Shown: positions 34,489-53,710, counted from the first letter of the stretch. The stretch is 64,000 nucleotides of DNA from Cyanophyceae cyanobacterium (GCA_050331735.1 JBHJGN010000031.1:64001-128000), one strand, 5' to 3'. Program-made: numbers and translations. The notes: generated by a model from the sequence alone, not told the origin.

Positions 34489-34557
34489 CGTCAGGTTAAG
34501 TGGGAAGGCTCAGCCAAGATAATGTCACAATAGAGGAGCGTTTATACTATCTAGACT

Positions 34558-34920: not shown

Positions 34921-34940
34921 ACCTTATTACCTGTTGAACC

Positions 34941-35171
34941 TTGCCACAGTCAAGTCCTTGGAGCTATAAACCCTGGTGGTGTCAGCCTTGGTCCATTTTG
35001 CTGACTGGCACGACTATCATTGGCGGTACTTGGATAGTGACCCAGACTCTATGGGCAACTATCCTCGTGGCTTTTCCAGTTTTAGCCTGGTGGAGCTACT
35101 TTTTAATTCTCTGGCCACGACAGTTCAAGGCGTTATCCCCGTTTCCTGAACCGTCTTCATCAGATTCATAG
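34941..35171 (+). CDS. Small conserved cyanobacterial membrane protein (DUF6737-like)
   Basis: SPWSYKPWWCQPWSILLTG followed by two hydrophobic segments. Confidence 0.75.
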   Translation: MPQSSPWSYKPWWCQPWSILLTGTTIIGGTWIVTQTLWATILVAFPVLAWWSYFLILWPRQFKALSPFPEPSSSDS

Positions 35172-35297
35172 ATCAAGAGGCGTTGTGCTAAAACTAAACA
35201 ACATTGATGGGTCTTTATGGAGAGAAGTTAAGCAGTGCGCCCGACGTTTCGAGAAGAAATCGGCGACAACGCAGGGTCCGGTTGGAGTTAGGTTGGC

Positions 35298-37106
35298 ATG
35301 CAGAAAGCGGCAACAATTCAATGTTCAAATGTTCACTGTCAGGCTGCCAACCTCCTGAGTCACCAATTGTGCCATCGATGCAATACGCCGATTGTGAAAC
35401 GGTATTTATGGGCTATTGAGGTGGCGGAGGAAAAGCCTGTCGGAGAGCTGATTAGCGATCGCTATTTGCTCAAGCAGACTCAACTGGTTCTCGATACTAA
35501 ACCCGGTTTAACGCCTCAGCTCCCGTCTGAGATTCCAGAAAGCTTAGTCCCCTATCTACGGCTGTTTCCCTACCGTCTTCACGTTCCGACCGTTTACGGA
35601 GCGCTCGGTGCTGAAGCCAATTCTGGTTGGCTGTTAACCTATCGGTCTACCGTCACCGACTTAGACGAGCTGCTGCTGCCCCCCTTGGCTCAGGCATGGC
35701 CAGAAGCCGCAGCGCTTCGGCAGCTTAACTGGCTGTGGCAGATGGCAGCCCTGTGGCAGCCGCTTCACAGCGAAGGGGTAGCCTCCAGCTTATTAGCGCC
35801 TGCCTTAATCAGAGCCAATCGCGGCATTGTGCAGCTCCTTCAGCTTCGGCAAGATGAGCAGCCACCCACACTCAAGCAGCTTGGTCAACTTTGGTTAAAG
35901 TGGCTTGACGATACCGCCACTGCCCTGCAACCGTTTCTACAGAAGCTTTGCCAGCATCTCATCAGTAAAGCTATTCAGCAGCCGGAGCAACTGCTGGCGA
36001 CCTTAGAGCAGGGACTGCGGCAGGGCGATCGCCCTCAACGCACCTATTGTATTTTTACCGCAACAGAAACGGGACCAAGCCGCGACCACAACGAGGATGC
36101 CTGCTTTCCTCTCGCTGGTCAGACGATTCATCCGGCTCGTGAGGACGAGACTTTAACGATTGTGTGTGACGGACTGGGAGGACAAGAAGGCGGGGAAATA
36201 GCGGCTCAACTGGCCGTCGAGGATTTAGTTGAGCAGATAGCAATTAGTCCCGAGGATGACTCGAACAAGCTTATTGCCGCGATCGAACGCGCGATCGTCA
36301 GCGCCAACAACGTTATCGCTCAGCGCAATGACCGAGAACAGCGTCATGAGAGCCAGCGTATGGGCACAACCCTCACCCTGGCGATCGCCCATTCTCCGTA
36401 TTTATATTTTTCCCACGTTGGCGATTCGCGGATTTATTTTATCCATGCGGGGGGGTGTCATCAAGTGACGGTAGATGACGATGTGGCCTCTAGAGAAGTG
36501 AGGCGTGGCTACGCGATCTACCAAGACGCTGTGCAGTCTCTCAACGCCGGCGCTCTCTACCAGGCACTGGGAATTTACCCTTCAGATTTCCTCCAGCCGA
36601 TGGTCCAGCGCTTGGTGTTAGACGAAGACTGCGTGTTTCTGCTCTGTTCCGATGGCTTAAGCGACAACGAGCTTGTCGAGCAATACTGGGAGGAAATGCT
36701 TCCCATTGTGCAACAGCAGGCCTCGGTAGAGCAAGTCGGCGAGCGGCTTGTAAAAATTGCCAATCAGCTTAACGGTCACGATAATATTACCGTGGCTCTG
36801 CTCTATTGTCAGGTAGCTCCCGCTGCTGGACCAGCCACTCCCATTAAATTTTCTCTGGTTTCTCCGCCCCCTGCCGCTCAAGACTCAGCTTTACCTGAGC
36901 CAGCGACAGAAGCTGATAGCACGACTCTAGCCGCTTCTCTGCCTCCCCAACGGCCTTTCCGTTACTGGTTACTCTTAATGGTCGTTGCTGTCCTAGGACT
37001 AGGAGCCGTTGCTTACTGGTTGTTTTCAGAGCCACTGCGAGAACGGTTCGATCAGCGCCAAGAAAGGCTTTCTCAGTCAACAATCGCAACTCGTACAAAG
37101 GTTTGA
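35298..37106 (+). CDS. PP2C-family Ser/Thr phosphatase with N-terminal Zn-ribbon and degenerate kinase-like region, C-terminal TM
   Basis: CSNVHC..CHRC; RDHNEDA, VCDGLGG, MGTT, HVGDSR, LCSDGL, GHDNIT. Confidence 0.92.
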   Translation: MQKAATIQCSNVHCQAANLLSHQLCHRCNTPIVKRYLWAIEVAEEKPVGELISDRYLLKQTQLVLDTKPGLTPQLPSEIPESLVPYLRLFPYRLHVPTVYGALGAEANSGWLLTYRSTVTDLDELLLPPLAQAWPEAAALRQLNWLWQMAALWQPLHSEGVASSLLAPALIRANRGIVQLLQLRQDEQPPTLKQLGQLWLKWLDDTATALQPFLQKLCQHLISKAIQQPEQLLATLEQGLRQGDRPQRTYCIFTATETGPSRDHNEDACFPLAGQTIHPAREDETLTIVCDGLGGQEGGEIAAQLAVEDLVEQIAISPEDDSNKLIAAIERAIVSANNVIAQRNDREQRHESQRMGTTLTLAIAHSPYLYFSHVGDSRIYFIHAGGCHQVTVDDDVASREVRRGYAIYQDAVQSLNAGALYQALGIYPSDFLQPMVQRLVLDEDCVFLLCSDGLSDNELVEQYWEEMLPIVQQQASVEQVGERLVKIANQLNGHDNITVALLYCQVAPAAGPATPIKFSLVSPPPAAQDSALPEPATEADSTTLAASLPPQRPFRYWLLLMVVAVLGLGAVAYWLFSEPLRERFDQRQERLSQSTIATRTKV

Positions 37107-37286
37107 CGAATTCCGTTGATAGATTGTGGTAATAAAGCTTTCTTGATCTTGGCGCTCAAAAGCTAACCGTAGCCCCAAATCCATTAGAACAATGCCACTA
37201 GTTCGGTGCATCTAGATTAGTGCCCAGCGACGGGAGCGTAACCACACAGGCAGATGTACTGGAGTCATTGTTCATTTTTTACGGGT

Positions 37287-39038
37287 CTAAAGCAATCCCT
37301 CGGATTTAAGCTGATTGAGAGAAAAGCTGAGTTTCTTCTCGGTCTGCTGTAGGGGTAAACACTGACGGGCTGCTTCCTGTCGCTGGAGCAAATCACCCTC
37401 CGTTGGCTGAGTCTGACAACCACGCTGGACGAGGCGCTGATGAACTTTTTCTTGCCAGAGTCTCTCTCCATCCTTCATCGCTGCAATATCGGCGGTTGGC
37501 ACTTTTACCCGCAGCTTCAGCGGGATGCCTGCCTCCTGCTTATTCTGATAGCCCGGATTAATCAGAAGACACTGACCTGTCGGAAACTTGAGTAAATCTT
37601 CCGGCGCACACAGCTTACGGATCTTTTCCTGTTCGGCCATACTAGTGTTGCTTTTTCCGGCACTTCTGCCTTTGGTTTTCTGATGCGTCTGCAACTCTTC
37701 ATCTCCTAAAAAATCAGAAAATAGCTTTGCTGACTCGTATTCTTGGGGATTAAAAATGGCTTTGCTACCGCAGCCGCCTAAAATCGCACGAGCGATTTCT
37801 CTACCGTAGGTTTTTTCTAGCTGGTTAAGATTCTGAAACCCTAGAATACTGACTAAGCCATCTTCTCGATTTTCATTGAGCCACTGAACGAGGGCAGGCA
37901 GATACAGAGTCGGTAACTCATCAAGCGCTAGCACCAGCGGGTCTTGGCGCGGCTGGCTCACGTTGCGGTTAACGAGCATGTGCAGAATACTGGCGCACAG
38001 CGGACCAACTACATCCCGCCGCTGTCGGTCCATGCCTACAATGAGTAGCTGCTTGCCTGCTAAATCTAGGGGCAGGGTGGTCTCCCCACAAAAGGCTCCC
38101 AGAATGCTTGGCTTAGCGAAGCGGGTAAAGGCGTTGTTCGCCGTAGCAATGATGCTGGCAACGGTTTTTTCAGAATCGGCAACCGACAGCAGTTGACCAA
38201 AGCTAGCCAGCACCCAAGGATTTAGTTCGCCAAGCTTTTCTGCGTTGCGCAAGCGCGCTGTCAGACTATCTAAAGACAGCAGCGCCTGACACATTAAGAT
38301 ATCGGGGTAGGGAGTGCTTTTTGCCAACAGAAACACGGCTTCAGTAAGCTGATCTCCGGCCATTGTAAAGAACGGATCGTCACTGCCTTGGGTCATCAGC
38401 TTGAAATTTTGATTGAGCACTTCGGCAATCTGACGGGCCATCTCGGCATCGGTCGGACTGCGGAGAAAATCGAGTGGGTTGCAGACGGCAGATTCCGGAA
38501 AGCCAGGAGCAAAGATGTGCAGTTTGTATCCGGCTTTAAGGGCGTAAGCGGCTAAACGCGAAGTTTGGGTCGGGTATTTGAAGTCATAGAGAATAATCGG
38601 AAAGCCGCGATCGACAGCAGAACGCAGCACGGGATCGATGATGCTAAAGGTTTTACCAGACCCAGGACCACCGCAGACGGCTAAACCTCGCTGCAAATCC
38701 GGTAAATAAAGGGTTTGCTTTGATGGCGATGTCTGCGGACGGCCAACATAGAGAGAGACAGCGTTGCGGCGATTTTCCCGAATTTGAGCGCAAGCCAAAC
38801 GGCGAGCCGCCGCTGTTTCCGGCTTGCCGCCAAAATGAGCGTTGGCCTGCTTTTGGCGACGACGGCGATCGCCAAGGACAGAGAGACTCCCCAAACCAAT
38901 CAGACAGGCTAGCAGAATCAGACTATTGCTATTCAATAGCTCTTGGAAATTATCGGGGACTGGCAGCTCAACAGCTTGAGCTAAATGCCCACTGTTGGGC
39001 ATCTCTATTCTCGAGTTCTCCTCGACATTTCTAACCAT
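37287..39038 (-). CDS. virD4: Type IV coupling protein (VirD4/TraG/TraD-like)
   Basis: N-terminal TM; Walker A GGPGSGKT, YDFK, Walker B LDELP, GFQNLNQLEKTYG, FSDFLGDEE. Confidence 0.9.
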   Translation of the reverse strand: MVRNVEENSRIEMPNSGHLAQAVELPVPDNFQELLNSNSLILLACLIGLGSLSVLGDRRRRQKQANAHFGGKPETAAARRLACAQIRENRRNAVSLYVGRPQTSPSKQTLYLPDLQRGLAVCGGPGSGKTFSIIDPVLRSAVDRGFPIILYDFKYPTQTSRLAAYALKAGYKLHIFAPGFPESAVCNPLDFLRSPTDAEMARQIAEVLNQNFKLMTQGSDDPFFTMAGDQLTEAVFLLAKSTPYPDILMCQALLSLDSLTARLRNAEKLGELNPWVLASFGQLLSVADSEKTVASIIATANNAFTRFAKPSILGAFCGETTLPLDLAGKQLLIVGMDRQRRDVVGPLCASILHMLVNRNVSQPRQDPLVLALDELPTLYLPALVQWLNENREDGLVSILGFQNLNQLEKTYGREIARAILGGCGSKAIFNPQEYESAKLFSDFLGDEELQTHQKTKGRSAGKSNTSMAEQEKIRKLCAPEDLLKFPTGQCLLINPGYQNKQEAGIPLKLRVKVPTADIAAMKDGERLWQEKVHQRLVQRGCQTQPTEGDLLQRQEAARQCLPLQQTEKKLSFSLNQLKSEGLL

Positions 39039-39547
39039 GCAATTATGCGATCGCTTTCAACAAAGAGTTGTTTCTGCAAGCAAGTAATACCAAGCTATCT
39101 AGTGCTTGATCTTATTAATCGTTGTTGAAGACTATTTGGCTCATCTTCATAGTAAGTTTACGTCTGGCAACAATCTTTACGTACTCTTCAAACTATTCAT
39201 CAAACAGTACAGTAAACATTATTTAGTGGCAATGCTCAACTTTTTTCTAACACAGCAAGCCAAAATTGCCAATTTACAATAACTTTAAAAAATTGCGGAA
39301 ACCACGGAAATCTATAGATTCAGCATGGTTAATCTGCCTTGTTTAAGTAAAAACCAGCAGAAAAGTGTATAGCTAGCTGGCAGAATCGTTTTTTATGGAT
39401 TAATATTGACCTGCAAATAAAAGTTGTCTGTCCTGCTCGACTCCTCAAAAATGTTGTATTAGACAACAAAACTAACAGATTTTTATTAACAGCAAGCTTG
39501 ATTTAATTCAAGCGGCAAAAACTGCCTAGCCGTTTATCAACAGAACA

Positions 39548-40147
39548 ATGAAAAAAATCTCAAATGCACTCAGTAAATTCAAACAGCTTCGACTGACCAA
39601 ATACCAGCTTTGGCTCTGTGCGGCTCTTGTCGCCTGTGTCTATCTGTTAATTAACCACGCTACTGCCTTTACCTATTTAGGAGTTCCGCTCGCGTTAGGA
39701 ATTTTGATGTGGAAAGACCTGTGGCGGCAGACCGCTAAAGCCGTTGGTCCGGGGGGTAAATATATCCCAGAAATCGTTGCAGCCGTTGCGGCGATCGCTC
39801 TAATTTGGGGAGTGGGGATCGCTGAACCAGTGGGAGCGCAATTTTACCAGGATGCTCAAAACTTCTTTTGTGAGGAGCTAGTGGCTGGTACAGGTTCAGA
39901 CACCGAGAACGTGAAACGAGGCATTTCTGTCACCTTCAATGCGCTACGAGCCTTCTTCCTGATTTACATTGCCGTCTCCCTGATTCGAGTTGTCAATGCG
40001 GTGCGAGAAGATGAAGATTGGCAGACGATGGCGAGAACGCCAATTCTGGCCACTCTCATTGTCACAGTCGGAGATTTGCTCACCAACTTCTTTATCTCTG
40101 GCGACCCCAGCGACGGTGCCTGTGACACGGGCGGTAGTGGAGGATAA
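39548..40147 (+). CDS. T4SS pilin-like membrane protein (VirB2-like, cyanobacterial type)
   Basis: Leader ending AEPVGA-QF, then two hydrophobic helices around FNALRAFFLIYIAVSLIRVVNAVREDEDWQTMARTP; first gene of the operon. Confidence 0.65.
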   Translation: MKKISNALSKFKQLRLTKYQLWLCAALVACVYLLINHATAFTYLGVPLALGILMWKDLWRQTAKAVGPGGKYIPEIVAAVAAIALIWGVGIAEPVGAQFYQDAQNFFCEELVAGTGSDTENVKRGISVTFNALRAFFLIYIAVSLIRVVNAVREDEDWQTMARTPILATLIVTVGDLLTNFFISGDPSDGACDTGGSGG

Positions 40148-40162
40148 GCTTTAGTCACTGCT

Positions 40163-40531
40163 ATGCCTTCAGAGCGCTCTCAACCGATTAAAGTTAACCG
40201 CATTCTTGGAACTCAACCTCGTCTCGGACCTCTCCCTGCCGATCAAGTTCTGCCTTGGTCTCTATTCACTCTATTTTCCTACTTCATCTGTCAGGGATAC
40301 TACGACTTCGGCTGGCTGCCCATGGTGTTGCTAGATGGATGGCTCATTTCCACCTGGTGGATTCTCACTGGAGAGAGAAGCTGGCGTTTCCTGTCTAAGA
40401 TCTATCCTCCGGTTCCTCGGTGGGAGCGAGGTTGCCCCAAATACCACAGTTTTTTAGAAGATCACCGCTCATGGCACAAACCAAGAAGAAACTCGGCAAA
40501 AAGAGGGTCGGTTTCAAGAAGAACAAAGTAA
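40163..40531 (+). CDS. T4SS VirB3-like small membrane protein
   Basis: VNRILGTQPRLGPLPADQVLPW, two TMs, TWWILTGERSWRFLSK; directly precedes and overlaps the VirB4-like gene. Confidence 0.65.
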   Translation: MPSERSQPIKVNRILGTQPRLGPLPADQVLPWSLFTLFSYFICQGYYDFGWLPMVLLDGWLISTWWILTGERSWRFLSKIYPPVPRWERGCPKYHSFLEDHRSWHKPRRNSAKRGSVSRRTK

Positions 40532-43278
40532 CCCTCTCCCCGTTTGAAGATTTTCTGCATCTTGCTGCTCTCGTTCGGATTGCTTTAAGAGGTCGCCGAG
40601 TCGGAGCCTATCTACTGACCAAGGGACAAGGCAAAAGCCTGCGCTTTGTCTTTGGGTTTGAGTGTCAGGGCATTCACGCCACGCCTCGCTCCTCAGAAAC
40701 CGTGGAGACTGTCTTTAGTAACTTAGAGTCTGGCTTAAAAGAACTGCCCGGCGGCGAACTCCTCACGATCCACATGGGGTCATTCCGCGAGGAACGTCAG
40801 CGACAGGCTGAACTCGCTTCTCTGGTCCGCCACGCGCCCAACCTGGAGTCAAAATTTTTGCTAACCGGAGAACGCGCGCGAGTCCAGGAATTGACTCGAC
40901 TCGGCGTTCGCAAAGAGAAGTTCATTCGCATCTATGTAACCTACACTATTGAAACGGGTAACGTCGGCGCTCAAGATGCGGTAGAGAAGATCCTGGCACA
41001 GATGCAGGGAGTGTGGCATCGGTACACGGGTCAAAGAGAAGAAATGAAACAACGCCAGCTTCAGGAAAGTTTCACCCTAGCTTTTACTGACGGCTTTTGC
41101 CGCTGGGAGCAGATTCTCACCAATAAAATGGGGCTACCGCTGCGCCCCCTCGACGAGCAAGAACTGTGGGATGGTCTTTGGTCGCGATTCAACAGCAGCG
41201 AACCGACGCCGATTCCGCAACTGATTACGCTTGATAGTCGGGGCATAGCAGAAGAAATCAGAACAAAAACTCATGCAACCACGCTACTGCTCAGAGATCA
41301 TCTGCCGCAGGCAAGCGAATCTTGGCTAAAAGTTAAAGATCGCTACGTCGGCGCACTGACGTTTTTAGAAAAGCCAAGCGGTTGGGCCAATCGGTTAGCT
41401 CAGCTTCGCTATGTCTGGAACGTCATGGCCCGCGAACAGGTGCAGGATACCGAAGTATTTTGTCAATTGGCTCCAGCCAATCCTAAATTAGTGCAAATTG
41501 CCGTACAGCGGCTCCTCAAGCAATCTATCGTCACGGCTGACCTTGCCGAAGAGAAACAGTCGGCGGATGTGGCAGCGAAAGTTAAAGCCGAGCGCTCCTA
41601 CGAAGCGCAAAAGCAGATGTACGAAGGGGCGACTCCTCTCTACACGGGCATGACTATTTTAGTTCACCGCGATCGCCTCAGCGACCTCGATGAAGCCTGT
41701 CGCTTTCTCGAATCCTGCTTTCAACGTCCGGCTTGGGTGACGCGCGAGCTGAACTACACCTGGAAGATTTGGCTCCAAACTTTACCGATAGTGTGGGAGC
41801 GCCTGCTGGCCGTTCCCTATGACCGTCGCCAGCTCTACCTCAGCGATGAAGCCCCCGCTTTCATGCCGTTGGTGACAACGCAATCGCTCGATAAGCAGGG
41901 CTTTCAGCTCATTGCCGATGAGGGAGGAGCACCTATTTATATTGACTTATTCACGCAGCACCGCAACCTGGCTCTGTTTGCCACTACTCGTGCCGGCAAA
42001 TCGGTGCTTGTTGCCGATATCCTCAAGCAAGCATTAGCTCACCAGATGCCCATCGTGGCCATCGACTTCCCAAAGCCAGACGGCAGCAGTACTTTTACCG
42101 ACTTTACCCACTTTATGGCTCACAACGGAGCCTACTTCGATATTTCCCGCGAGTTCAACAATCTCTTTGAGAAACCCGACTTGCGGGTTTTAGAGCCTGA
42201 CGAACAGGAGTCCCGCTTTCTCGACTACCGCGACTTCCTAGAAGGAGCGCTGATGACAATGGTAGGCGGGAATAGTCGAGACCCGTTACTGGGTCAAACA
42301 ATTCGGTCTTTACTCAATTTGGCCCTCAACGCCTTCTTTGCCGATTCCCACATTGACCAGCGATATCAAGCCGCTCTAGAAGCGGGAATCGGCTCACCCG
42401 CGTGGCACAATATTCCCACTCTTCGAGACTTCCTTGAATTCTGTTCTCCGCAGCATCTCAATTTAGAATCAATTTCCGGCAACGTCAACGAAGCTCTTCA
42501 GCAAATTATCCTGCGCCTTCAGTTTTGGCTCGGCAGTCGCGTCGGTCGAGCGATTTCGCGTCCTTCGAGCTTTCCGACTAATGCTCAACTGATCGTCTTT
42601 GCGCTAACGAATCTATCCAACGAAGAAGATGCGGCGATTTTAGCGCTGTCGGCGTACTCAGCCGCGTTGCGTCGCGCCCTTGCTGCCCCTGCGTCTATCT
42701 TTTTCATTGATGAAGCCCCCATTCTCTTTGAATTTGAGGAAATTGCTAGCTTGGTGGGGAGGCTGTGCGCAAACGGTGCTAAAGCCGGAGTTCGAGTCAT
42801 TCTCAGCGCTCAAGACCCCGATACCATTGCTAAATCGCAACATTCATCGAAGATCTTCCAAAACCTCAGCACCAGATTAATTGGTCGCATTCAACCAGCA
42901 GCGGTGGAGAGCTTCGAGCGCATTCTTAAGTATCCGCGCGAGATCGTTGCCAAAAATGCTGGCGAAAGCTTCTTTCCGTCTCGCTCAGGAATCTACAGTC
43001 AGTGGCTGCTTGATATTGATGGTCTTTACACCTACTGTCGCTTCTATCCCGCTTACGTCCTGCTGGCAGCAGTGGCGAACAACCCAGATGAGCAGATTGT
43101 GCGTCGCTGGTTCTTGCAGCACTACGAGGATAAGTTTATTGCGCTGACAGAGTTTGCCAAACATTTAGTCAACTCGATTCGCAACGGTCAACCCCTGCGT
43201 ATTCCTCAGCAAGCACCGCAACCTCTTCTTGACGTTTCATCTGAACTGAAAAGCTTGAACGGAGCTGGTTCTAAATAG
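40471..43278 (+). CDS. virB4: VirB4-like T4SS ATPase
   Basis: About 935 aa; Walker A ATTRAGKS, Walker B FFIDEAP, GAKAGVRVILSAQD; start MAQTKKK at 40471. Confidence 0.85.
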   Translation: MAQTKKKLGKKRVGFKKNKVTLSPFEDFLHLAALVRIALRGRRVGAYLLTKGQGKSLRFVFGFECQGIHATPRSSETVETVFSNLESGLKELPGGELLTIHMGSFREERQRQAELASLVRHAPNLESKFLLTGERARVQELTRLGVRKEKFIRIYVTYTIETGNVGAQDAVEKILAQMQGVWHRYTGQREEMKQRQLQESFTLAFTDGFCRWEQILTNKMGLPLRPLDEQELWDGLWSRFNSSEPTPIPQLITLDSRGIAEEIRTKTHATTLLLRDHLPQASESWLKVKDRYVGALTFLEKPSGWANRLAQLRYVWNVMAREQVQDTEVFCQLAPANPKLVQIAVQRLLKQSIVTADLAEEKQSADVAAKVKAERSYEAQKQMYEGATPLYTGMTILVHRDRLSDLDEACRFLESCFQRPAWVTRELNYTWKIWLQTLPIVWERLLAVPYDRRQLYLSDEAPAFMPLVTTQSLDKQGFQLIADEGGAPIYIDLFTQHRNLALFATTRAGKSVLVADILKQALAHQMPIVAIDFPKPDGSSTFTDFTHFMAHNGAYFDISREFNNLFEKPDLRVLEPDEQESRFLDYRDFLEGALMTMVGGNSRDPLLGQTIRSLLNLALNAFFADSHIDQRYQAALEAGIGSPAWHNIPTLRDFLEFCSPQHLNLESISGNVNEALQQIILRLQFWLGSRVGRAISRPSSFPTNAQLIVFALTNLSNEEDAAILALSAYSAALRRALAAPASIFFIDEAPILFEFEEIASLVGRLCANGAKAGVRVILSAQDPDTIAKSQHSSKIFQNLSTRLIGRIQPAAVESFERILKYPREIVAKNAGESFFPSRSGIYSQWLLDIDGLYTYCRFYPAYVLLAAVANNPDEQIVRRWFLQHYEDKFIALTEFAKHLVNSIRNGQPLRIPQQAPQPLLDVSSELKSLNGAGSK

Positions 43279-43324
43279 GTAGGGATCGCCCGCTCAACAA
43301 GCTGGATAACTCAGGAGTATAGCG

Positions 43325-43777
43325 ATGTTTCAACAATTTAAAAGCCTACGCCGAATAGCCGTCGCCTTCCTCTTGCTGGCTGCTGCGACGGTAATTTTAG
43401 AGCGCCATTGGGCGATCGCTAATTCACCCTCAACCCTTCCACCACACGAGGAAACTATGTTTCGGTTTGAAAATTTCGATCGCGCCGGCAACGACCGAGA
43501 AATTGAGCAGGCAATCAAGAAACGGCTGCTTGACATGCATCCCATTGGTTCTGATCCTGATGAGCTAATCGAAAGTCTAGAAGCTGCTGAAGCTTACTGT
43601 CGCGATGAGTCATCCCAGGACCAAGAATTTTCTACGCATCTGTGTCGGTATCGATACCCTCTTGGCATTCCCGTCAGCAACCCTCGGTTTACGGCAGAAG
43701 CGTTTCGGTCAGTCACAATTTACTACGACGAAACTGGCATTGTTGATATTGAAGTGAGCGTTGCTCATACTGCATAG
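43325..43777 (+). CDS. Exported hypothetical protein (candidate immunity protein)
   Basis: AGGAG RBS; signal-peptide-like N-terminus; FRFENF...LLDMHPIGSDPDELIESLE..A.C...C.Y core with two Cys. Confidence 0.8.
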   Translation: MFQQFKSLRRIAVAFLLLAAATVILERHWAIANSPSTLPPHEETMFRFENFDRAGNDREIEQAIKKRLLDMHPIGSDPDELIESLEAAEAYCRDESSQDQEFSTHLCRYRYPLGIPVSNPRFTAEAFRSVTIYYDETGIVDIEVSVAHTA

Positions 43778-43822
43778 CTTTCATAGCTAAGAACATCCAG
43801 GATTGGAATAGGAGTGCGCTAA

Positions 43823-44698
43823 ATGGGACATAAAATCGAGGTCAGATCCTACGAAATTGACCAGCTAGACGAAACAGAGAACAATAATTGGTTTAATCGC
43901 GCTGTTGATGCAAGTCATGCTTTTATTGTGTATGCAGATGACCAAGGCAATGAGCAAATTCTGCGAGGCGGACCGAATCCAGAGACGGGCAACATTTTAG
44001 CGAATTACGGAGAATACAGTCAAAACGGTGTAGATGGAACGAACCCCGTTAGTTGGAGAGGCGAACCGCTGCGAGAAACACCAAGAGAAATTCGCTCTGT
44101 TGTGGTTGCTGAGGGAGGAGCAGAACTCGCCGCCGTTTTTGCCGCGATGAAGGAGCAGGCAGACGCAATTAATAAGGCACGAATTCCCTACATTGCTTGG
44201 GGACACAACGTCCAAAACAGTAACTCGGTTGTCGCTACGGTACTAGAAGAAGTTGGACTAGAGCCGAATTTTCCTCCGGGTTGGCACCCTGGGAGGAACG
44301 TCAATCTACTGGAGGAACATTTTCGGCAAGGAAATTCCAAACCAAGCAGCGCTCCTGCCTCTAGCCCATCACCAAAGGGTGAATCTAAGCCCACTGCTCA
44401 GCTACCTGCTAATGCTTACGAACAGGTTGCTGCTTACGTGCGTAATGCTTTAGCTAGTCCCAATTTAGCTGGATTAGCACTGGACAACCGCATTGCCCAA
44501 GCACTGATCAATGGCGAGACTGATCAAGCTGCTGCCAAAATTTTGAGCCAAAGTCCTAACGCACAGCAGGCAATGCAAGCAGGAAAACAGCCGGAAGCCT
44601 TTAGCTACATTCAAGCCAGACTAGAGCAGGGAACACAGTTAAATAATCAAACAGCTCAGGTGCAGTCGAACCGCGAACCAGAAATGAGGCTAGAGTAG
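43823..44698 (+). CDS. Hypothetical protein, candidate T4SS effector
   Basis: AGGAG RBS; no signal peptide; N-terminal domain SHAFIVY..ILRGGP..PY...QNSNSVVATVL..PG, Pro/Ser linker, helical Gln-rich C-terminal domain. Confidence 0.8.
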   Translation: MGHKIEVRSYEIDQLDETENNNWFNRAVDASHAFIVYADDQGNEQILRGGPNPETGNILANYGEYSQNGVDGTNPVSWRGEPLRETPREIRSVVVAEGGAELAAVFAAMKEQADAINKARIPYIAWGHNVQNSNSVVATVLEEVGLEPNFPPGWHPGRNVNLLEEHFRQGNSKPSSAPASSPSPKGESKPTAQLPANAYEQVAAYVRNALASPNLAGLALDNRIAQALINGETDQAAAKILSQSPNAQQAMQAGKQPEAFSYIQARLEQGTQLNNQTAQVQSNREPEMRLE

Positions 44699-44935
44699 GG
44701 CTTGCATCAAGCTTTTGAAGGGTTTTTGCTCTGAAAGACAAGGAAATTTCACAAAATCTATAACTAAGATAGATTAATTAAAGCTTTTATGAATATTGCT
44801 GCTATTGGCACCAATATTCTTTAACAAACAATATCAGAAAGCTATATTTGTAGACAAGAACCAGCGACATCAGCAGTTGTACGAGTTGACAATTGCTTTC
44901 ATATTTCCTCACTCAATTTCTTTAGGAGCCTGTAA

Positions 44936-45829
44936 ATGTCCAACCAACCAAAAGCTATCAGCATTAGGAGAACTCGTCGGGTGGCGATCGCTGGTAGCCT
45001 ATCGTTAATCTTACTAGCCTGGAGCGCTAAACCTGCTAAAGCCGGAATCTTTGGTGGTTTGTTTGGCTACTTTACTAACTATATTGAAAATTTTGTCAAC
45101 GAAGTCGCATCTTACTACATCGATTATGTAGACGATTTTATTGATTACGTCGAACTGGGTGCGGATGTTTTAATGGGCAAATTAGAAGAGCGTTTACCGA
45201 GCATGATTGCAACGACAGTATTAGGCGATGACAAATGGATCGATCCAGAAACCTACAGCCCAGGAGCACTGGGATTGCCTAGCCCCATTGAGTTGACAAC
45301 ACAGATTAAAAAAGATATCTACGAAGGCAATGCAGCTTCTTTAGGTCTCGAAACCACTGCTGGCGGACGAGCCGAAGAAGAAGCAAGACGCAGCGAACGA
45401 GCGTTATCTAAAGAGATTAGTGATGCTGTATATCTAAGTCAGGAAGCTCAGGAACAGCATCAGATTAATATTGAAGAGACTCAAGCTTTGGTAGAGAGAA
45501 CTAACGAAGTTTCTAAAGCCTCAGCAGGGCTATCGGAGAAGGCGGATGCTGCCAACTCTAGTCAAGAGGTGTTGAAGCTGTTATCGCAACAAATTGCCCT
45601 TGATTCTCGGCAAAATGCCGAACTAACCTCGCTTGTCGGCAGCTTGAAAACGCAGCATTTGATGGCAACGATGGTTGAGCAAAGTCAAGTGGCGGCAGTA
45701 ATCCAGCAGTCTGAGTATTTAGCTGGACTTTACAGAAGCGAGGGTCTGAAAAAACAGATTAGCGGTGCTAATACAATTAGAGCCGGAAAAAATCTTCAGG
45801 GCTACGCGACGTTTGTCGGAGGACTGTAG
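44936..45829 (+). CDS. Exported helical T4SS component (VirB5-like)
   Basis: Signal peptide ending PAKA; GALGLP, then Gln-rich coiled coil with SSQEVLK; lies between VirB4-like and VirB6-like genes. Confidence 0.6.
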   Translation: MSNQPKAISIRRTRRVAIAGSLSLILLAWSAKPAKAGIFGGLFGYFTNYIENFVNEVASYYIDYVDDFIDYVELGADVLMGKLEERLPSMIATTVLGDDKWIDPETYSPGALGLPSPIELTTQIKKDIYEGNAASLGLETTAGGRAEEEARRSERALSKEISDAVYLSQEAQEQHQINIEETQALVERTNEVSKASAGLSEKADAANSSQEVLKLLSQQIALDSRQNAELTSLVGSLKTQHLMATMVEQSQVAAVIQQSEYLAGLYRSEGLKKQISGANTIRAGKNLQGYATFVGGL

Positions 45830-45831
45830 GC

Positions 45832-45950
45832 GCTGGCGAATAAATTTGCGGCTACAAAAACCAAGTTTGTCTTCATAGATTCTAGACAATCAAGAGTTTA
45901 AGCAACCTGCGCGGCAGGTTCTGTTAGGGTGACAGCGGTTTTAGCCGCTA
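45832..45950. repeat. Degenerate MITE-like palindromic element
   Basis: GGCGAATAAATTTGCGGCTAC left end, internal hairpin AACCTGC-GCG-GCAGGTT (45904-45920), GCGGTTTTAGCCGC right end. Confidence 0.5.
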
Positions 45951-46059
45951 ATAACCTCAAAGTTAATGCAGATTTTCTGCCGTAGAAGCGTTAGTTTCTT
46001 GGCCAAGATGGGAACGATAAAAATGTAGCTGGTTCATAGTTGCTAGTGCCCTTGGACCA

Positions 46060-46785
46060 TTGATAATGATGAGATTTTTTTCTGTACGCCTAATCAGCAT
46101 AGCTGTTGTTCTGTTTCACCTTTCCCTACTAGGAGGAACGATGAGGCTGCCATCAGCACAGGCTCAATCTAACCCTCCTCTAAACTTTGACCCGACTGCC
46201 CCAACTCCTGCGCCAACTCCAACAACTTCCAATAACCAGGACTTCTTCTGCGGTCAGGGATGGGAATTTAATGGCTTTCCCTATGACTTGTTTGCCTGGG
46301 AGGAGATTCCTTGGGGTATGCCGGGAGATGAGTTTTTAAGAAGATACAAACAGCGAGTAGAGGAGTGTTCGTCAACAGTTTTTAGTGGTGAGCGAGGAAT
46401 AAATGCTACCCATTCATTTGAGAATAAGAGTCAGAAAGATCATACAACTGTATATTTTAGATTTCATGGAGAAAACAATACTCTTTCCGAAATTTATCTA
46501 AATCGTGTTCCCAGTTACATGAGAGATTATCTCTTGCAGCATTATGGAGTGCCTGCTCAAGCCAACTACACGCCAGTCAAAGTTCGTGTTGGTTGTGTTC
46601 GTGAAGGGATTGTCTGTCCTCCTGTCTTTGAATACCGAGGAGAGGAACTCTGGAGTGGAATCTGGCGGCTGTCAGAGACCTTCATTCAGTTAGGCACGCC
46701 CAATAGCATAACTATTAAACCCGTTGACTCTGACCTACAAAGTCGTCCTGTGTGCGATGAGTTTCTGATCTTCAAATTTTGTTAG
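46060..46785 (+). CDS. Exported hypothetical protein
   Basis: Signal peptide ending SAQA, Pro/Thr linker PTAPTPAPTPTT, Cys-containing globular domain; exact start uncertain. Confidence 0.7.
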   Translation: MIMMRFFSVRLISIAVVLFHLSLLGGTMRLPSAQAQSNPPLNFDPTAPTPAPTPTTSNNQDFFCGQGWEFNGFPYDLFAWEEIPWGMPGDEFLRRYKQRVEECSSTVFSGERGINATHSFENKSQKDHTTVYFRFHGENNTLSEIYLNRVPSYMRDYLLQHYGVPAQANYTPVKVRVGCVREGIVCPPVFEYRGEELWSGIWRLSETFIQLGTPNSITIKPVDSDLQSRPVCDEFLIFKFC

Positions 46786-48035
46786 CCATGCTTCCAGGAG
46801 TAGTAAAGTTTACTCATTTATCATTCTGGCTGCTGGTGCAAGCTGGAGATACTTGTGATGGCGCTGGTAATTTTGACCTAGATCTCTCGGATCAGTTTGC
46901 TGAGGATGTCACGGTAGCAGAAAAAGTCAAGGAGAGTTTTGATGGACTGTGGGATGTGGCGCTATCTCCTACCAGTTTTGTTTATAGTTCTCTCTCTGAT
47001 ATTGGTCTACTGTTAGCAGTAGTTACCGTTACTGTGTTTATAGTACGTTGGGGGCGGGAGTTATTAGAGTCTGGAATTTCCAGTAAATCGTTTGGAGAAA
47101 TTATTTGGCCCTTAGTTGTAGCAGTTTTCTTAAGTAACAATGGACAAATTCTCGCTAGCACGACTCGCGCTATGCAGAACTACGTTCAAGAGCAGGAGGA
47201 AACAATTGTCAACGGAGCGTTTCTGGATGTGTTTATTGGAGAAACTCTTGAATCGGCTTTTCGGCAGTTAGTTGGTATCACGACAGTTCCTTTGGGCATT
47301 GGCTCGATTTTAGCTCAGTGTACTAGTCACGAAAATCCAGCGTTTTGCTTATCAGGACCACCAGTATATGAAGGAGAGGAAATTGAGAGATTTGAGTCTG
47401 GGGCGCTTCAACAGGCAATTTGTGCTTTGAATCCTTATGTAGAATCAGGAGAAAATCCTAAATTAGCTCAGCTCAGCAAAGAACTCGAAAAAGAACAAGA
47501 GAAGTTACATTCAATCCTTAAAAACGAAGTGCCAGGTTCTTCTGATGAAGAAGATACTTTCACTGTAGGCATTCCGCCTGAAATATACAAACTTATGTCT
47601 GCGAGTGAGGATTCTGGGTTGATGCAGTTCTTTATGGGGTCTGGAGCCGCATTTGTGTGGTTGACTGAACTCGCACTATTTATTACTGCCCTACTTGGAC
47701 CTCTCGCTCTTGGCTTGAGCCTGCTGCCTGTTGGCGGAAAAGCAGTCTTCGCTTGGCTGACAGGCTTCCTCTCTGTTGCTTTTGCAAAGCTGTTTTATTT
47801 CATTTTGACGGGGCTATCTTCGATTGTGGTGCTCGATGCTATTCAGGATGTGTCCCTAACAGACTTTGTGGACTCGATTCTGGTGGGAATCTTTGTCGGA
47901 GCACTGGCACCGCTGCTTTCCTTGGCAGTGTGCGTGAGCGGCGGTCGAGCGGTATTTCAAAGTTTAGTCGGCTACGTAGTTCCGGCGGTTGATTCGACGG
48001 TGCGGCGGCGGCAGATTTATCGAGCAGGAAAGTAA
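46779..48035 (+). CDS. VirB6-like polytopic T4SS membrane protein
   Basis: IIWPLVVAVFLSNNG; C-terminal TMs ELALFITALLGPLALGLSLLPVGGKAVFAWLTGF...APLLSLAV..GG. Confidence 0.75.
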   Translation: MLAMLPGVVKFTHLSFWLLVQAGDTCDGAGNFDLDLSDQFAEDVTVAEKVKESFDGLWDVALSPTSFVYSSLSDIGLLLAVVTVTVFIVRWGRELLESGISSKSFGEIIWPLVVAVFLSNNGQILASTTRAMQNYVQEQEETIVNGAFLDVFIGETLESAFRQLVGITTVPLGIGSILAQCTSHENPAFCLSGPPVYEGEEIERFESGALQQAICALNPYVESGENPKLAQLSKELEKEQEKLHSILKNEVPGSSDEEDTFTVGIPPEIYKLMSASEDSGLMQFFMGSGAAFVWLTELALFITALLGPLALGLSLLPVGGKAVFAWLTGFLSVAFAKLFYFILTGLSSIVVLDAIQDVSLTDFVDSILVGIFVGALAPLLSLAVCVSGGRAVFQSLVGYVVPAVDSTVRRRQIYRAGK

Positions 48036-48059
48036 ACAGATAAGCATTTTTGTAAGGGA

Positions 48060-48818
48060 TTGAGGGCTGTGGTGCAGATACTTCCAGAGAAAAAATCGAG
48101 AAACTACCTAGCGCTGTTTGTGCTGCTTACCGTGATTATGCAGGGGGCGAGTGTGCTGCTGCTGCTCTTTCAGGGGGCAATTATCAATCGCCTGAGCAAA
48201 AACCCGCCCACTCTGGTACAGCTTGTGGATGGAGAATCGATTCGCGTCGAGCCGATGGATTACCTAGAGCGTACGCCCCAAACAATCCGCGAGTTTGTTG
48301 AAGATACCATGACCATGCTAATGACCTGGTCGGGGGAACTTCCGGTCGAGTCGGCGCAGGATGAAAAGGTGCCGAGGCGCGACCCAGGAGTGACGATAGC
48401 GACGGAATCGGGTCGCTCTCAAAGGATTGCCACCTCTACCTGGCAAGCAGGATTTGCTCTTTCTGAAGACTTTCGGGTTGAGTTTTTGCAGGAACTGACT
48501 CGCCTCACTCCTCAGCGAATCTTTAGCAGAAATCAGGATACGCAGGTTGTTTTGGTGATACTCGATTTGTCTGAACCGAAGAAGATTGAAGAGGGTAAAT
48601 GGAAGCTGGCAATGGTCGCTAACTTACTGTTTTTTAGGGACGGTAGTTCCCTCGGAGAGGGAGTCCCGTTTAACAAAGAAGTTTATGTGCATACTGTCGT
48701 TGCGCCAGAAGTGCCTGATGATGCGACTCCTCTAGCTCGGAAAATTTATCAGGTGCGACAAGCTGGCTTGGAAATCTACGCCATGCGTGATTTAGAGGCG
48801 GAGGAAATTTTGGAGTAG
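48060..48818 (+). CDS. VirB8-like bitopic T4SS protein
   Basis: One N-terminal TM, PPTLVQLVDG, RTPQTIREFV...MTWSG, ALSEDFR, FNKEVYV. Confidence 0.65.
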   Translation: MRAVVQILPEKKSRNYLALFVLLTVIMQGASVLLLLFQGAIINRLSKNPPTLVQLVDGESIRVEPMDYLERTPQTIREFVEDTMTMLMTWSGELPVESAQDEKVPRRDPGVTIATESGRSQRIATSTWQAGFALSEDFRVEFLQELTRLTPQRIFSRNQDTQVVLVILDLSEPKKIEEGKWKLAMVANLLFFRDGSSLGEGVPFNKEVYVHTVVAPEVPDDATPLARKIYQVRQAGLEIYAMRDLEAEEILE

Positions 48819-48911
48819 ATATACCTCTATAGAATGGGGGAAAAGAGTAAGGGAGAAAGGAAACTCAAAATTCGATAAAGTGGGGATACATAAAGTGACA
48901 GGGATCAAACT

Positions 48912-49478
48912 GTGACAACGCTGGTTAAGTGGACGGTTGAAGACTATCACCGGATGATTGAGGCAGGTATCCTCTCCGAACGACGCTGCGAGTTAATCGG
49001 AGGAAAAATCGTTGAGATGGCGCCGGAAGGACCGCTGCATCGGTTTATCAATGAAACGGTCGGTGACTATTTACGCCAGCAATTGGGAACTGCGGCTCTC
49101 GTTTCAGAAGCTCATCCCATTACTCTCGTAGATTCAGAACCAGAACCAGATATTGCCATTATTCAACCTCCTCGGAGTCGATACAGGAATCGCCATCCTG
49201 CCCCCCAGGATATTTACTGGCTAATCGAAGTTGCCGATACGACCCTTGCTGAAGATACAGGGGAAAAATTGACAGCGTATGCTAAAGCAGGTATCCCTGA
49301 GTATTGGGTCATCGACGTTCAGCGATCGCAAGTCAAAGTCTTTCGCCAGCCCCTCGAAGAGCAATACCGAAGCGAGACAACTGTGACGGCGGGAACAGTT
49401 TCGCCACTAGCCTTTGCTGATGTTGCCATTTCTGTAGAACGATTGTTGGGGGTAAGGAATAGCGAGACTCAGCTTTAG
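48912..49478 (+). CDS. Uma2-family endonuclease
   Basis: WTVEDYHRMIEAG, SEPEPDIAI, LIEVADTT, YAKAGIPEYWVID. Confidence 0.92.
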   Translation: MTTLVKWTVEDYHRMIEAGILSERRCELIGGKIVEMAPEGPLHRFINETVGDYLRQQLGTAALVSEAHPITLVDSEPEPDIAIIQPPRSRYRNRHPAPQDIYWLIEVADTTLAEDTGEKLTAYAKAGIPEYWVIDVQRSQVKVFRQPLEEQYRSETTVTAGTVSPLAFADVAISVERLLGVRNSETQL

Positions 49479-49573
49479 CCTTGGCGAGCGATCGCACCGA
49501 TGCCAAGTTGCCATTTGAGACAATCTTCTATTCACAATACTCACTAGACGAGTAGTTGTTTCATGGTTTCGAC

Positions 49574-50500
49574 TCAGCGCGGAACGTTTAACGCTCCGTT
49601 GTTTCTCAGCCAAAGTTTCTGGTCTTCAGTGAATCCTTCTGCGTTTGTAAAAGTCGCGCCTGCTACAGTACACTCCGTTAAATCAACGTCGTCCCATACT
49701 GTATCTTCCACATTAGCATCTCGCAAATCAGCGTTTCTTAAACTAACCTGCGTTAATATTGACCCTTCTAAGCTGGCGGAAAACAAGGAAGCTTGAGTAA
49801 GATCTGAGGACTTAATTTGAGTATTTTGTAAACTAGCACGATTTAAATCTGCCTGTCGCAGAATAACAGTTTCGATTTCTGCTGCTCTGAGGTTAACACC
49901 AATTAGATCAGCTCCCGTAAAATCGGCTCTGGTGATACAGGCGCGGCTCAAATTAGCTTTTTCCAGATTTGCCTGCTGCCAAATTGTTCCCTGAAGATTA
50001 GCCGCTTCTAACGAAGCTTGACGAAGATTGGCCCCGCTAAAATTGCTATTAAGAAAAGTAGCCGCTCCCAAATTTGCTGCCTCTAAATTTGCCCGACAAA
50101 AGTTAGTGTTTTCTCCTTTGGCTTCTCTAAAATCCACTCTCTTTAAAACTGCTGCATAAGCCTCAGCATTATGAAGAGTGGCTCCATAAAATTTGGCATT
50201 TTCGGCCTTGGCCTCTCTAAGGTTGGCTCGTTCCAGGGAGGCACTGTTGAGCATAGCGTAGGCAAGATTGGCCCGAATTAGTTCTGTGCCTGTTAAAGTA
50301 GCAAACATCAGCGTTGCTTCCGAAAAGTTTGTGTCTCGGCAAGATGCTGCGGAAAGATTAGCGCCACGAAGATACGCTGCGGTAAAGTCTCCTCCATCTA
50401 GCTTGGTTTGCTGTAGATCGATGTGGCTTAGCTCCGCTTCATAAAAAGATTGTCCCAGTCTCAGTCTCATTAAGACTTCATCGGGAGAAAATAGCGACAT
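49574..50500 (-). CDS. Pentapeptide repeat protein
   Basis: Long run of A(N/D)Lxx repeats. Confidence 0.92.
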   Translation of the reverse strand: MSLFSPDEVLMRLRLGQSFYEAELSHIDLQQTKLDGGDFTAAYLRGANLSAASCRDTNFSEATLMFATLTGTELIRANLAYAMLNSASLERANLREAKAENAKFYGATLHNAEAYAAVLKRVDFREAKGENTNFCRANLEAANLGAATFLNSNFSGANLRQASLEAANLQGTIWQQANLEKANLSRACITRADFTGADLIGVNLRAAEIETVILRQADLNRASLQNTQIKSSDLTQASLFSASLEGSILTQVSLRNADLRDANVEDTVWDDVDLTECTVAGATFTNAEGFTEDQKLWLRNNGALNVPR

Positions 50501-50821
50501 CTGTAGGTTGAGCCTCCGTATAGATGAATTAATCAATTGGTTCGAGCGGCACTGCTAAGTGTAATTACGCAAACTGACCGTAAATTGCTCCAAAATTAAT
50601 CATTTTCTCACTCAGCAGTCTACACCATTTATAAGTCAAGCAGAAGGCTATTGAGTCATGCTCACCAACTAAAGAGCTGCCCTCAATTTAGTCTTGATCG
50701 GGTATAGTTGATTGCACTCTGGACGTTTTTATTTCCTGGGCTATCTTATAAGAATGAATGATGCAAAGCTCATTAGCCGGCTCAAACTAGGAAAGAATTC
50801 TGACACTATTTAAAGCCCCTC

Positions 50822-53076: not shown

Positions 53077-53081
53077 AAAAT

Positions 53082-53666: not shown

Positions 53667-53710
53667 ATCAGAGCTAGTGAGAAACTTAATGAGTTGGAAA
53701 AAGGGAAGGG

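Follow-up and report, generated by a model that had tools for sequence, protein, structure and literature searches.

A chromosomal MPF_C type IV secretion system in a cyanobacterium, most likely an exporter of antibacterial toxins

INTRODUCTION

Type IV secretion systems (T4SSs) that secrete proteins are known from only two of eight classes, MPF_T and MPF_I, according to the sections of Abby et al. (2016, PMC4793230) that treat them. In the X-T4SS of Xanthomonas citri and Stenotrophomonas maltophilia, as outlined in the text of Sgro et al. (2019, PMC6536674), one effector gene belongs to the vir locus, and the remaining ones are scattered through the genome. The effectors, whose heads include AHH and peptidoglycan-hydrolase domains, share a C-terminal domain of ~120 amino acids (XVIPCD) that is glutamine rich at its end and binds VirD4, and their immunity proteins are periplasmic lipoproteins; the same text predicts further killing T4SSs with other recognition signals (PMC6536674). 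The MPF_C class was defined from cyanobacterial loci, and the part of its description that deals with HHsearch reports links to VirB3, VirB6, VirB8, VirB9, and VirB10 and none to VirB2 (PMC4027160); the class is described as having “compact genetic loci” (Guglielmini et al. 2013/2014, PMC3548315, PMC4027160), and, by the statement in PMC3548315, nothing experimental was known about it in 2012. Here we analyze a T4SS gene cluster at positions 37287 to 48818 of a window (the whole stretch of DNA under analysis, 64 kb, JBHJGN010000031.1:64001-128000) from a Cyanophyceae cyanobacterium (GCA_050331735.1), a draft bin of 99 contigs that is 99.98% complete and 0.52% contaminated.

We found no report in the literature of an effector-secreting or antibacterial MPF_C system, in agreement with a previous interpretation of this DNA (the sequence-only reading), which knew of none. 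The nearest item concerns the T4SS of the nonphotosynthetic predator Vampirovibrio chlorellavorus, as far as the relevant part of that publication describes it (PMC4451040). The cluster analyzed here is an MPF_C operon, and by analogy with the X-T4SS it most likely belongs to a chromosomally fixed machine that no longer transfers DNA and exports antibacterial toxins. The evidence comprises the homology of the machinery, its division between two chromosomal loci, the lack of a recognizable relaxase, and a C-terminal domain (CTD) shared by a candidate toxin encoded inside the operon and other proteins with toxin-type heads.

RESULTS

By direct homology and by synteny with plasmid pCC7120beta of Nostoc sp. 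PCC 7120 and 22 related loci, which together formed the set for comparison, the cluster is an MPF_C operon. In pCC7120beta, two small genes are followed by genes for a VirB4-like protein, proteins of 243, 383, and 258 amino acids, TrbI/VirB10, proteins of 283 and 484 amino acids, the coupling protein, and a protein of 829 amino acids, and this order is repeated in the loci of relatives, e.g., L023. The coupling protein and the products of five operon genes (g199, g122, VirB4, g418, and g252) each match their pCC7120beta counterpart in tblastn searches, and the order within the operon is likewise shared with pCC7120beta and the related loci. All 10 frames of the cluster are open at the coordinates given here, and Walker motifs were located in both ATPases, as had been claimed.

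The VirD4-type coupling protein (T4CP; 583 amino acids, 37287..39038, minus strand) has a single membrane segment at its N-terminal end and the Walker motifs GGPGSGKT (A, residue 123) and LVLALDE (B, residue 368), and it matches TrwB_AAD_bind, T4SS-DNA_transf, and TraG-D_C (Pfam PF10412, PF02534, and PF12696) with E values from 2e-27 to 6e-22. It is 49% identical to the T4CP of pCC7120beta and 63% identical to that of genome G042. Judged by the layout of the open reading frames (ORFs), the 509 bp that separate the divergently oriented T4CP gene and operon (39039..39547) are presumably the promoter region; a consensus promoter/terminator scan there was at chance level (13 versus 11.1 expected; 12 versus 12.5). 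No RNA data set carrying the locus is listed, and the sole listed data set is one DNA metagenome run.

The VirB4-like ATPase (40420..43278, plus strand) is encoded by a 952-amino-acid frame in which homolog alignments start at about residue 37; the protein's Walker motifs are found at residues 521 (A) and 760 (B). Curated VirB4 models match weakly (TIGR00929, E value of 1.3e-9, 37 bits against a cut-off of 643). In tblastn searches, 133 plasmid records match, those listed all being cyanobacterial, and 119 of the 133 do so over at least 80% of the length. Identity to the plasmid VirB4-like proteins is 49 to 60% over 93 to 95% of the length, with the best match on the Gloeothece verrucosa PCC 7822 replicon Cy782201 (60%) and 49% for pCC7120beta. 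When plasmids and genomes are taken together, identity is 49 to 63% over more than 90% of the length, with cyanobacterial matches only, and in a tree of 21 sequences the protein nests among cyanobacterial VirB4-like proteins. A scan of genome contigs with VirB4 returned three loci, and a metagenome scan returned one, a near-copy of L020.

The remaining eight operon proteins match no Pfam family, and a search at an E value of ≤10 yielded nothing usable. Upstream of VirB4, g122 (40163..40531, plus strand) is a small VirB3-like protein whose gene overlaps the start of the VirB4 frame and whose homologs lie directly 5' of VirB4. They are fused to VirB4 in 6 of the 19 loci with a g122 match, in ORFs of 1,048 to 1,084 amino acids; fusion to VirB4 is known VirB3 behavior and supports the VirB3-like label of g122. 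The fusion loci (L030, L031, L032, L033, L034, and L036) form one subclade of cyanobacterial MPF_C systems. The polytopic membrane protein g199 (39548..40147, plus strand) occupies the VirB2 (pilin) position; the C-terminal half (residues 93 to 189) is 40 to 53% identical to the product of the gene 5' of VirB3/VirB4 in related loci, and the VirB2 label is given by position only.

Downstream, g297 (44936..45829, plus strand), an exported coiled-coil protein with a signal-like N terminus, occupies the VirB5 position. It aligns by hhalign to the family of the 243-amino-acid protein encoded after VirB4 in pCC7120beta (p243; probability of 96%, E value of 3.9e-9, 105 columns), with no match at the level of BLAST, and since this family is that of the gene following VirB4, g297 is regarded as a structural gene. 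At the VirB6 position, g418 (46779..48035, plus strand) is a polytopic inner-membrane protein, as indicated by its hydrophobic segments, and is 23 to 31% identical to its counterpart in 14 loci; further matches are faint (TrbL/VirB6, E value of 0.75; CD3337/EF1877, E value of 0.027). The last gene of the operon, g252 (48060..48818, plus strand), encodes a bitopic membrane protein with one transmembrane segment at the VirB8 position, 25 to 50% identical to its counterpart in 16 loci. Profile searches of the VirB5-, VirB6-, and VirB8-position families against PDB sequences gave nothing significant. Of the labels proposed in the sequence-only reading, those of the T4CP, VirB4, and VirB3-like proteins thus stand by homology; VirB2, VirB5, VirB6, and VirB8 are labels by position, drawn from gene order, membrane topology, and the HHsearch links in the published description of MPF_C, as far as that part of it extends (PMC4027160).

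The cluster lacks a VirB9/VirB10 core, a gap that the sequence-only reading had overlooked: its last operon gene stops at 48818 and is followed by one for a Uma2 protein. A whole-genome tblastn search located the missing part on another contig, C8, where pCC7120beta VirB10 and the next two proteins match side by side at 52192-54774 (E values of 3e-22, 2e-30, and 3e-24). The three overlapping ORFs (G000:C8:51370-54843, equivalent to L017:9371-12844) encode VirB10/TrbI, a VirB9-like protein, and a third conserved, cysteine-rich secreted protein (p423). The first has the layout of VirB10, with a cytoplasmic N terminus, one membrane segment, a proline-rich region, and a TrbI domain, and it provides the single match to Pfam TrbI in the genome (42.4 bits, above the cut-off). 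For the second, the best PDB matches of a structural model (11 sequences, pLDDT of 80) are N-terminal domains of VirB9; they comprise TrwF (E value of 1.6e-6; TM score of 0.67 to 0.70 by target), DotH, X. citri VirB9, CagX, and the F-plasmid core. The third is homologous to the 484-amino-acid protein of pCC7120beta (p484). The block is flanked by genes for a xanthine/uracil permease and a GNAT protein, and its vicinity also includes hisF and a phosphofructokinase gene.

On the homology of these genes, one T4SS has its coupling protein and its inner-membrane and pilus-side components encoded in the window and its outer-membrane core encoded on C8. With the VirB4 clade, the accessory families, and a VirB9/VirB10-type core each found by homology, the assignment to MPF_C made from the window is confirmed. 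The genes are nevertheless not gathered in the single compact locus described for the class; they lie on C31, the contig of the window, and on C8, both with housekeeping flanks. Of the 22 related loci, 12 encode VirB10 directly 3' of the VirB8-position gene, and 10 are truncated at a contig end or too divergent for the order to be read; the split to C8 and the inverted T4CP gene at the operon's head are on this basis considered derived. Family matches to VirB11, VirB1, or VirB7 were absent among the ORFs of either locus.

For three genes of the operon, those of g150, g291, and g241, the 22 related MPF_C loci offer no counterpart, and these are exactly the three that the sequence-only reading had singled out, by their starts at 43325, 43823, and 46060, as nonstructural insertions. 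The exported, cysteine-rich protein g241 (46060..46785, plus strand) is an orphan with no match in 400 cyanobacterial genomes or in the 22 loci; an Atlas search was uninformative, and the start codon is uncertain, as the Atlas record begins at residue 28. Directly after VirB4, g150 (43325..43777, plus strand) is a small exported protein with an N-terminal signal or anchor and two conserved cysteines, and g291 (43823..44698, plus strand) is a candidate secreted toxin, by profile search and structural match, that has no signal peptide. A search of 5.8 billion proteins yielded two full-length homologs of g291 (78 and 37% identity) and two homologs of g150 (83 and 52%), each of the four encoded on a short metagenomic contig. 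For both proteins, one homolog comes from a contig 1,786 bp long, and this equal length suggests that the pair may travel together. From its position and export signal, g150 is a candidate immunity protein for g291. No homolog of g291 was found in genomes G041 to G043 or in a metagenome scan with the g291 alignment.

The N-terminal domain of g291 (43823-44317, plus strand) is followed by a linker rich in proline and serine. When 1.84 billion representatives were searched with a profile of g291 and the two homologs, 492 proteins matched at an E value of ≤0.001, and nearly all of the 150 listed matches were through the N-terminal ~130 residues. Domain architectures were examined by Pfam scan in 33 of the 150 (the best matches, long proteins, and two matching the C-terminal part). 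The N-terminal domain forms the C-terminal tip of RHS-repeat proteins in 4 of these (P0084, P0109, P0116, and P0153, within residues 1019 to 1568), the N terminus of RTX proteins in 13, and the segment ahead of a HINT domain in 1. The C-terminal tip of RHS proteins is the position of polymorphic toxin domains, and the family of the g291 N-terminal domain is thus found where domains of the polymorphic-toxin type occur, at an RHS tip or at the ends of secreted carriers. The domain is covered by no Pfam family and has no match to Pfam TseH. Among 154 aligned domains, the conserved core comprises H32, D39, R48-G-G-P51, Y123, and N132-S133-N134-S/T135, with His32 conserved in 144; g291 keeps all of these residues.

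In a comparison with 48,161 PDB chains, the best match of a low-confidence g291 model was the Vibrio cholerae effector TseH (Z score of 8.4, 132 residues), and the next five were permuted NlpC/P60-type hydrolases (Z scores of 5.6 to 6.4). An Atlas feature search with g291 returned TseH, DUF3750, and Lnb_N clusters as leads. On these models, the domain is probably a His-Ser/Cys hydrolase of the permuted papain-like superfamily with the cell wall as its predicted target, an assignment offered as a lead. The family as a whole probably represents an undescribed toxin or hydrolase domain. Members among the listed matches (P0007 to P0154) occur on RHS, RTX, HINT, and VWA proteins and are mostly from Pseudomonadota by Atlas labels.

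Two of the 150 listed matches, P0085 and P0031, hit the last ~105 residues of g291 and not the N-terminal domain, and they define the glutamine-rich CTD common to the three proteins (44381-44695 in g291, plus strand). P0085 is 100% identical to an ORF of the same genome (G000:C83:17036-19252), which encodes a 738-amino-acid hydrolase consisting by Pfam of SLT, M23, and PG_binding_1 domains followed by the CTD and lacking a signal peptide. P0031, from another organism, is an AHH-family nuclease toxin that ends in the same CTD. Three unlike toxin-type heads, a TseH-like hydrolase, an SLT-M23 hydrolase, and an AHH nuclease, thereby share the CTD, and none has a Sec signal. A profile of the CTD run over the six-frame translation of the genome found g291 (E value of 2e-47) and the C83 protein (E value of 2e-36), with the next match at an E value of 0.67. 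The five known CTDs have 21 invariant columns, become glutamine rich towards the end, and terminate in PE(L/M)xL(G/E). PEP-CTERM was considered for this ending and rejected, as no hydrophobic or basic tail follows the motif. The CTD has no Pfam match and, by profile search, no match among PDB sequences. PF20410 (XVIPCD) matched neither the CTD proteins nor the genome, in a search whose control genomes contained no positive.

Both CTD genes of this genome have a neighbor gene for an exported protein or lipoprotein. At C83, a 247-amino-acid ORF (L046:6182-6925) with a lipoprotein-type signal (…LLSSC) lies 110 bp upstream of the hydrolase gene, and the two (G000:C83:16181-19252, equivalent to L046:6182-9253) are a candidate second immunity/effector pair.

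DISCUSSION

The toxin heads that bear the CTD, the placement of g291 in the operon, the export-type neighbors, and the X-T4SS-like layout make toxin export, in our assessment, the best explanation of the system. By analogy with the X-T4SS, the coupling protein would recognize the ~105-residue glutamine-rich CTD on cytoplasmic toxins without a signal peptide and would pass them to the channel for contact-dependent delivery to neighboring cells, whose peptidoglycan the delivered toxins would attack. Two substrates are envisaged, g291, encoded inside the operon, and the C83 protein, with its SLT, M23, and peptidoglycan-binding domains and CTD; g150 and the lipoprotein encoded upstream of the C83 gene would likely be the periplasmic immunity proteins. 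Recognition of the CTD, secretion, killing, and immunity are all steps that we infer from the X-T4SS.

Several points weigh against toxin export. The CTD profile finds only five proteins among 5.8 billion. The CTD is absent from 40 relatives, 400 phylum-wide genomes, and the four records with the closest VirB4, so that its co-occurrence with a T4SS was found in this genome only; both the CTD and a g291 homolog are missing from G042, the genome with the closest VirB4 and T4CP (63%). The link between the CTD and the coupling protein is drawn from the operon position of g291 and from analogy, and the production and activity of the system are predictions from the genes of one genome. With respect to the hydrolase, the nucleophile position 133 is serine in 140 of the 154 N-terminal domains and cysteine in 6; the AlphaFold2 model of g291, built from three sequences, is poor (pLDDT of 46) and was used for a wide structural search only; and a Z score of 8.4 is a level that unrelated models can reach. 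Composition varies along the operon as well: G+C content at third codon positions is 0.39 to 0.44 from g150 to g418 compared to 0.47 to 0.62, and no HIP1 site occurs after 44984. Finally, MOB-suite types 40 of the 133 plasmids bearing this VirB4 as “non-mobilizable,” and cyanobacterial relaxases may thus be underdetected or unrecognized; the bin is a draft, and a relaxase-bearing plasmid could be outside it.

These last points bear on whether the system is still a DNA-transfer machine, one that mobilizes relaxase-carrying plasmids or islands in trans or uses an unrecognized relaxase, with g150 and g291 as no more than a toxin-immunity cassette that came to lie in the operon. The close homologs are all on plasmids, 70 of the 133 typed conjugative, and 40 of the 133 have no relaxase that MOB-suite detects; the coupling protein is kept; the draft bin may miss plasmids; and pCC7120beta itself carries its PF03432 relaxase ~110 kb from the transfer operon, a distance that is therefore normal for the class. 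Conversely, a relaxase, which a conjugative T4SS has in its replicon or genome, was sought across the bin with six Pfam families (PF03432, PF08751, PF03389, PF01076, PF07514, and PF02486) and with the pCC7120beta relaxase (a 515-amino-acid frame): none of the families matched in the 99.98%-complete bin, and the best tblastn E value for the plasmid relaxase was 0.5. The 829-amino-acid protein encoded after the T4CP in pCC7120beta also has no homolog in the genome. The claim of a relaxase-less system, made for the window, can in this way be extended to the whole bin. In addition, the T4SS genes lie at two housekeeping loci without element borders, and DNA transfer would leave unexplained the CTD common to g291, the signal-less C83 hydrolase, and a nuclease toxin. 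Continued DNA transfer is accordingly judged unlikely.

PLSDB and MOB-suite label cyanobacterial MPF_C systems “MPF_T,” and these labels, taken with the 40 non-mobilizable calls, make automatic typing of cyanobacterial plasmids look unreliable.

It is also quite unlikely that the CTD is unrelated to the T4SS, i.e., that it directs export by another system, e.g., a type I ABC exporter, or serves in docking or regulation, with the T4SS serving DNA release, DNA uptake, or adhesion. RTX proteins, on which the N-terminal domain is found in 13 of the 33 architectures, are exported by type I systems, whose signals are C-terminal too, and the CTD was found together with a T4SS in no genome beyond this one. 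However, g291 and the C83 hydrolase lack RTX repeats, no exporter gene lies beside either CTD gene, and g291 is encoded inside the operon, after VirB4 but before the structural gene that comes next. Type I signals are short and degenerate, whereas the CTD is a conserved, folded-looking domain of ~105 amino acids with 21 columns invariant in five sequences.

Improbable, in our view, is the proposal that the two CTD proteins are the machine's own wall hydrolases, acting in the role of VirB1 and docked by the CTD so that the thick cyanobacterial peptidoglycan is opened as the apparatus assembles. Each of the two is a predicted peptidoglycan enzyme, and Gram-positive conjugation systems employ multidomain SLT, LytM, and NlpC/P60 hydrolases. 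Yet ordinary MPF_C systems manage without such proteins, there being no CTD in 13 relatives with an MPF_C VirB4, and the same CTD ends an AHH nuclease. The RHS toxin position of the N-terminal domain family and the fit of the adjacent exported and lipoprotein genes to immunity also favor toxin export over a role in assembly.

The cluster is on a 176-kb contig with housekeeping flanks, and a scan of all 54 ORFs of at least 70 amino acids in the window found housekeeping genes outside the cluster (ribosomal proteins, suf, ndhN/ndhM, ppa, hisZ, and signaling proteins) and no integrase, relaxase, rep, or par gene. No flanking direct (att-like) repeat was found around the cluster, and the only tRNA of the window, at 4839, is 32 kb away. 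A setting among ordinary chromosomal genes, without integrase, replication or partition genes, or att repeats, had been read from the sequence, and it stands. In an independent assembly of one run, possibly the source sample, read depth is even at ~50x from 34500 to 51500, across the cluster and its flanks; one 7.7-kb contig spans the PP2C/T4CP junction, and the piece listed for the right junction overlaps the operon by 29 bases only. The tetranucleotide profiles of C31, C8, and C83 are typical of the bin. VirB4 and the T4CP are single copy, there is no other T4SS ATPase or TrbI gene, and tblastn found no paralogs of the cluster genes in the genome. The cluster has six HIP1 sites, as claimed in kind, at 0.52 per kb compared to 0.87 genome-wide. 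One publication on T4SS and HIP1 (PMC13756078, 2026, GBE) is irrelevant here, since T4SS stands for type IV pili in it.

Three Uma2-family (putative restriction endonuclease-like) genes lie in the window, at 15116-15844 (minus strand), 48912-49478 (plus strand), and 52989-53666 (plus strand), the second directly after the operon. An ORF of 1,086 amino acids at 54070-57330 (plus strand), 5 kb 3' of the operon, has DUF4347, cadherin, and FG-GAP matches and probably encodes a large surface or adhesion protein.

Conserved columns, defined as those with the same residue in at least 90% of the other family members, are kept at 81 of 82 positions in VirB4, 31 of 34 in the T4CP, 12 of 12 in VirB10, 10 of 10 in the VirB9-like protein, 9 of 10 in the VirB8-position protein g252, and 11 of 15 in the VirB6-position protein g418. 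This retention, for the cluster and C8 proteins alike, is within the range of plasmid copies. The nearest available DNA is ~60% identical in protein sequence, a distance at which synonymous sites are saturated. In the 21-sequence tree, the VirB4 terminal branch (0.44) is inside the spread of the others, and the neighbors are copies from a Gloeobacterales metagenome-assembled genome, two Nostocales, and the Gloeothece replicon. The VirB4 family is present in 13 of 40 same-order relatives, often in multiple copies, some of them truncated or with a stop. The grouping across cyanobacterial orders and the patchy, multicopy occurrence are as expected of a mobile family, and the copy here was captured from that family. 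Among the relatives, truncated or stop-containing VirB4 copies split over contigs (G020:C38 and C74; G036:C210 and C76) are decaying MPF_C remnants.

That the cluster is instead a decaying, nonfunctional relic of an integrated conjugative plasmid, scattered by rearrangement, is hardly credible: the broken canonical order, with VirB10-VirB9-p423 removed and the T4CP gene inverted, the HIP1 density below the genome mean, and the obviously broken copies in relatives would fit, but all 13 genes of both loci are open, the Walker motifs are intact, the conserved residues are kept as well as in plasmid copies, and the VirB4 terminal branch is of a length seen among the others. Domestication, as proposed in the sequence-only reading, is supported by the two housekeeping loci, the intact ORFs with their conserved residues, the even depth, and the status of the system as the sole T4SS in the genome.

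If the toxin-export reading is true, T4SS-based contact-dependent killing evolved more than once from conjugation systems, and cyanobacteria of dense mats would be found to possess a kind of weapon that has so far gone undescribed in the group. The CTD would be a new secretion tag for finding effectors and engineering protein delivery, and the unannotated H...RGGP...Y...NSNS family (492 proteins at an E value of ≤0.001), found on RHS and RTX proteins, would acquire a functional context. The chances are about even that the full proposition holds, namely, that this is the third independent exaptation of a conjugation machine as a protein-injecting weapon, the first protein-secreting MPF_C T4SS, and the first bacteria-killing T4SS in an oxygenic cyanobacterium, with structural genes dispersed like those of a housekeeping organelle and an undescribed CTD convergent with XVIPCD.

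By homology, the machinery belongs with that of MPF_C plasmids. With pCC7120beta, it shares VirB4 and the T4CP (49% identity each), homologs at the VirB3, VirB6, and VirB8 positions, VirB10, the VirB9-like protein, and p484, in the same order within each block. In contrast to MPF_C plasmids, the system is chromosomal and divided between two loci, its T4CP gene is inverted, the bin has no recognized relaxase, and three extra genes follow VirB4. The Gloeothece verrucosa PCC 7822 replicon Cy782201 (880 kb, NC_014533.1; L014 and L041), whose VirB4 is 60% identical, is typed non-mobilizable and has no PF03432 relaxase. Its T4CP homolog lies ~600 kb from VirB4, and these two features mark another dispersed, relaxase-less MPF_C set, which may be another nonconjugative system. 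It differs in that VirB10 is still beside VirB2/3/4, the order is VirB6/8/8'/10 before VirB2/3/4, and no CTD protein is encoded on the replicon.

The candidate toxin g291 may resemble TseH of the TseH/TsiH pair, a peptidoglycan effector of the V. cholerae type VI secretion system (PDB 6v98), in the permuted papain-like order with the histidine before the nucleophile, as seen in the low-confidence model. Unlike TseH, it has serine rather than cysteine at the nucleophile position and shows no sequence-level match, and its delivery would be by a T4SS rather than a type VI system.

Comparison with the X-T4SS reveals both differences and a common layout. The class here is MPF_C rather than MPF_T, the genes occupy two loci, and the host is a cyanobacterium. 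No VirB11, VirB1, or VirB7 was recognized at either locus, whereas the X-T4SS has the 12 class A subunits (VirB1 to VirB11 and VirD4), and a VirB7 with a C-terminal N0 domain, an X-T4SS trait, has no recognized candidate here. The CTD is unrelated to XVIPCD, with no PF20410 match. Nevertheless, both systems are chromosomal and relaxase-less, keep VirD4, and have one effector/immunity pair, a candidate one here, in the locus, with others dispersed. In both, the known or candidate effectors are signal-less, with variable toxin heads (peptidoglycan hydrolases and an AHH nuclease among them) ahead of a shared C-terminal domain of ~100 to 120 amino acids that is glutamine rich at its end, and the known or candidate immunity proteins bear lipoprotein or export signals. 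The system is thus not a member of the X-T4SS family, yet by analogy it appears to work like one.

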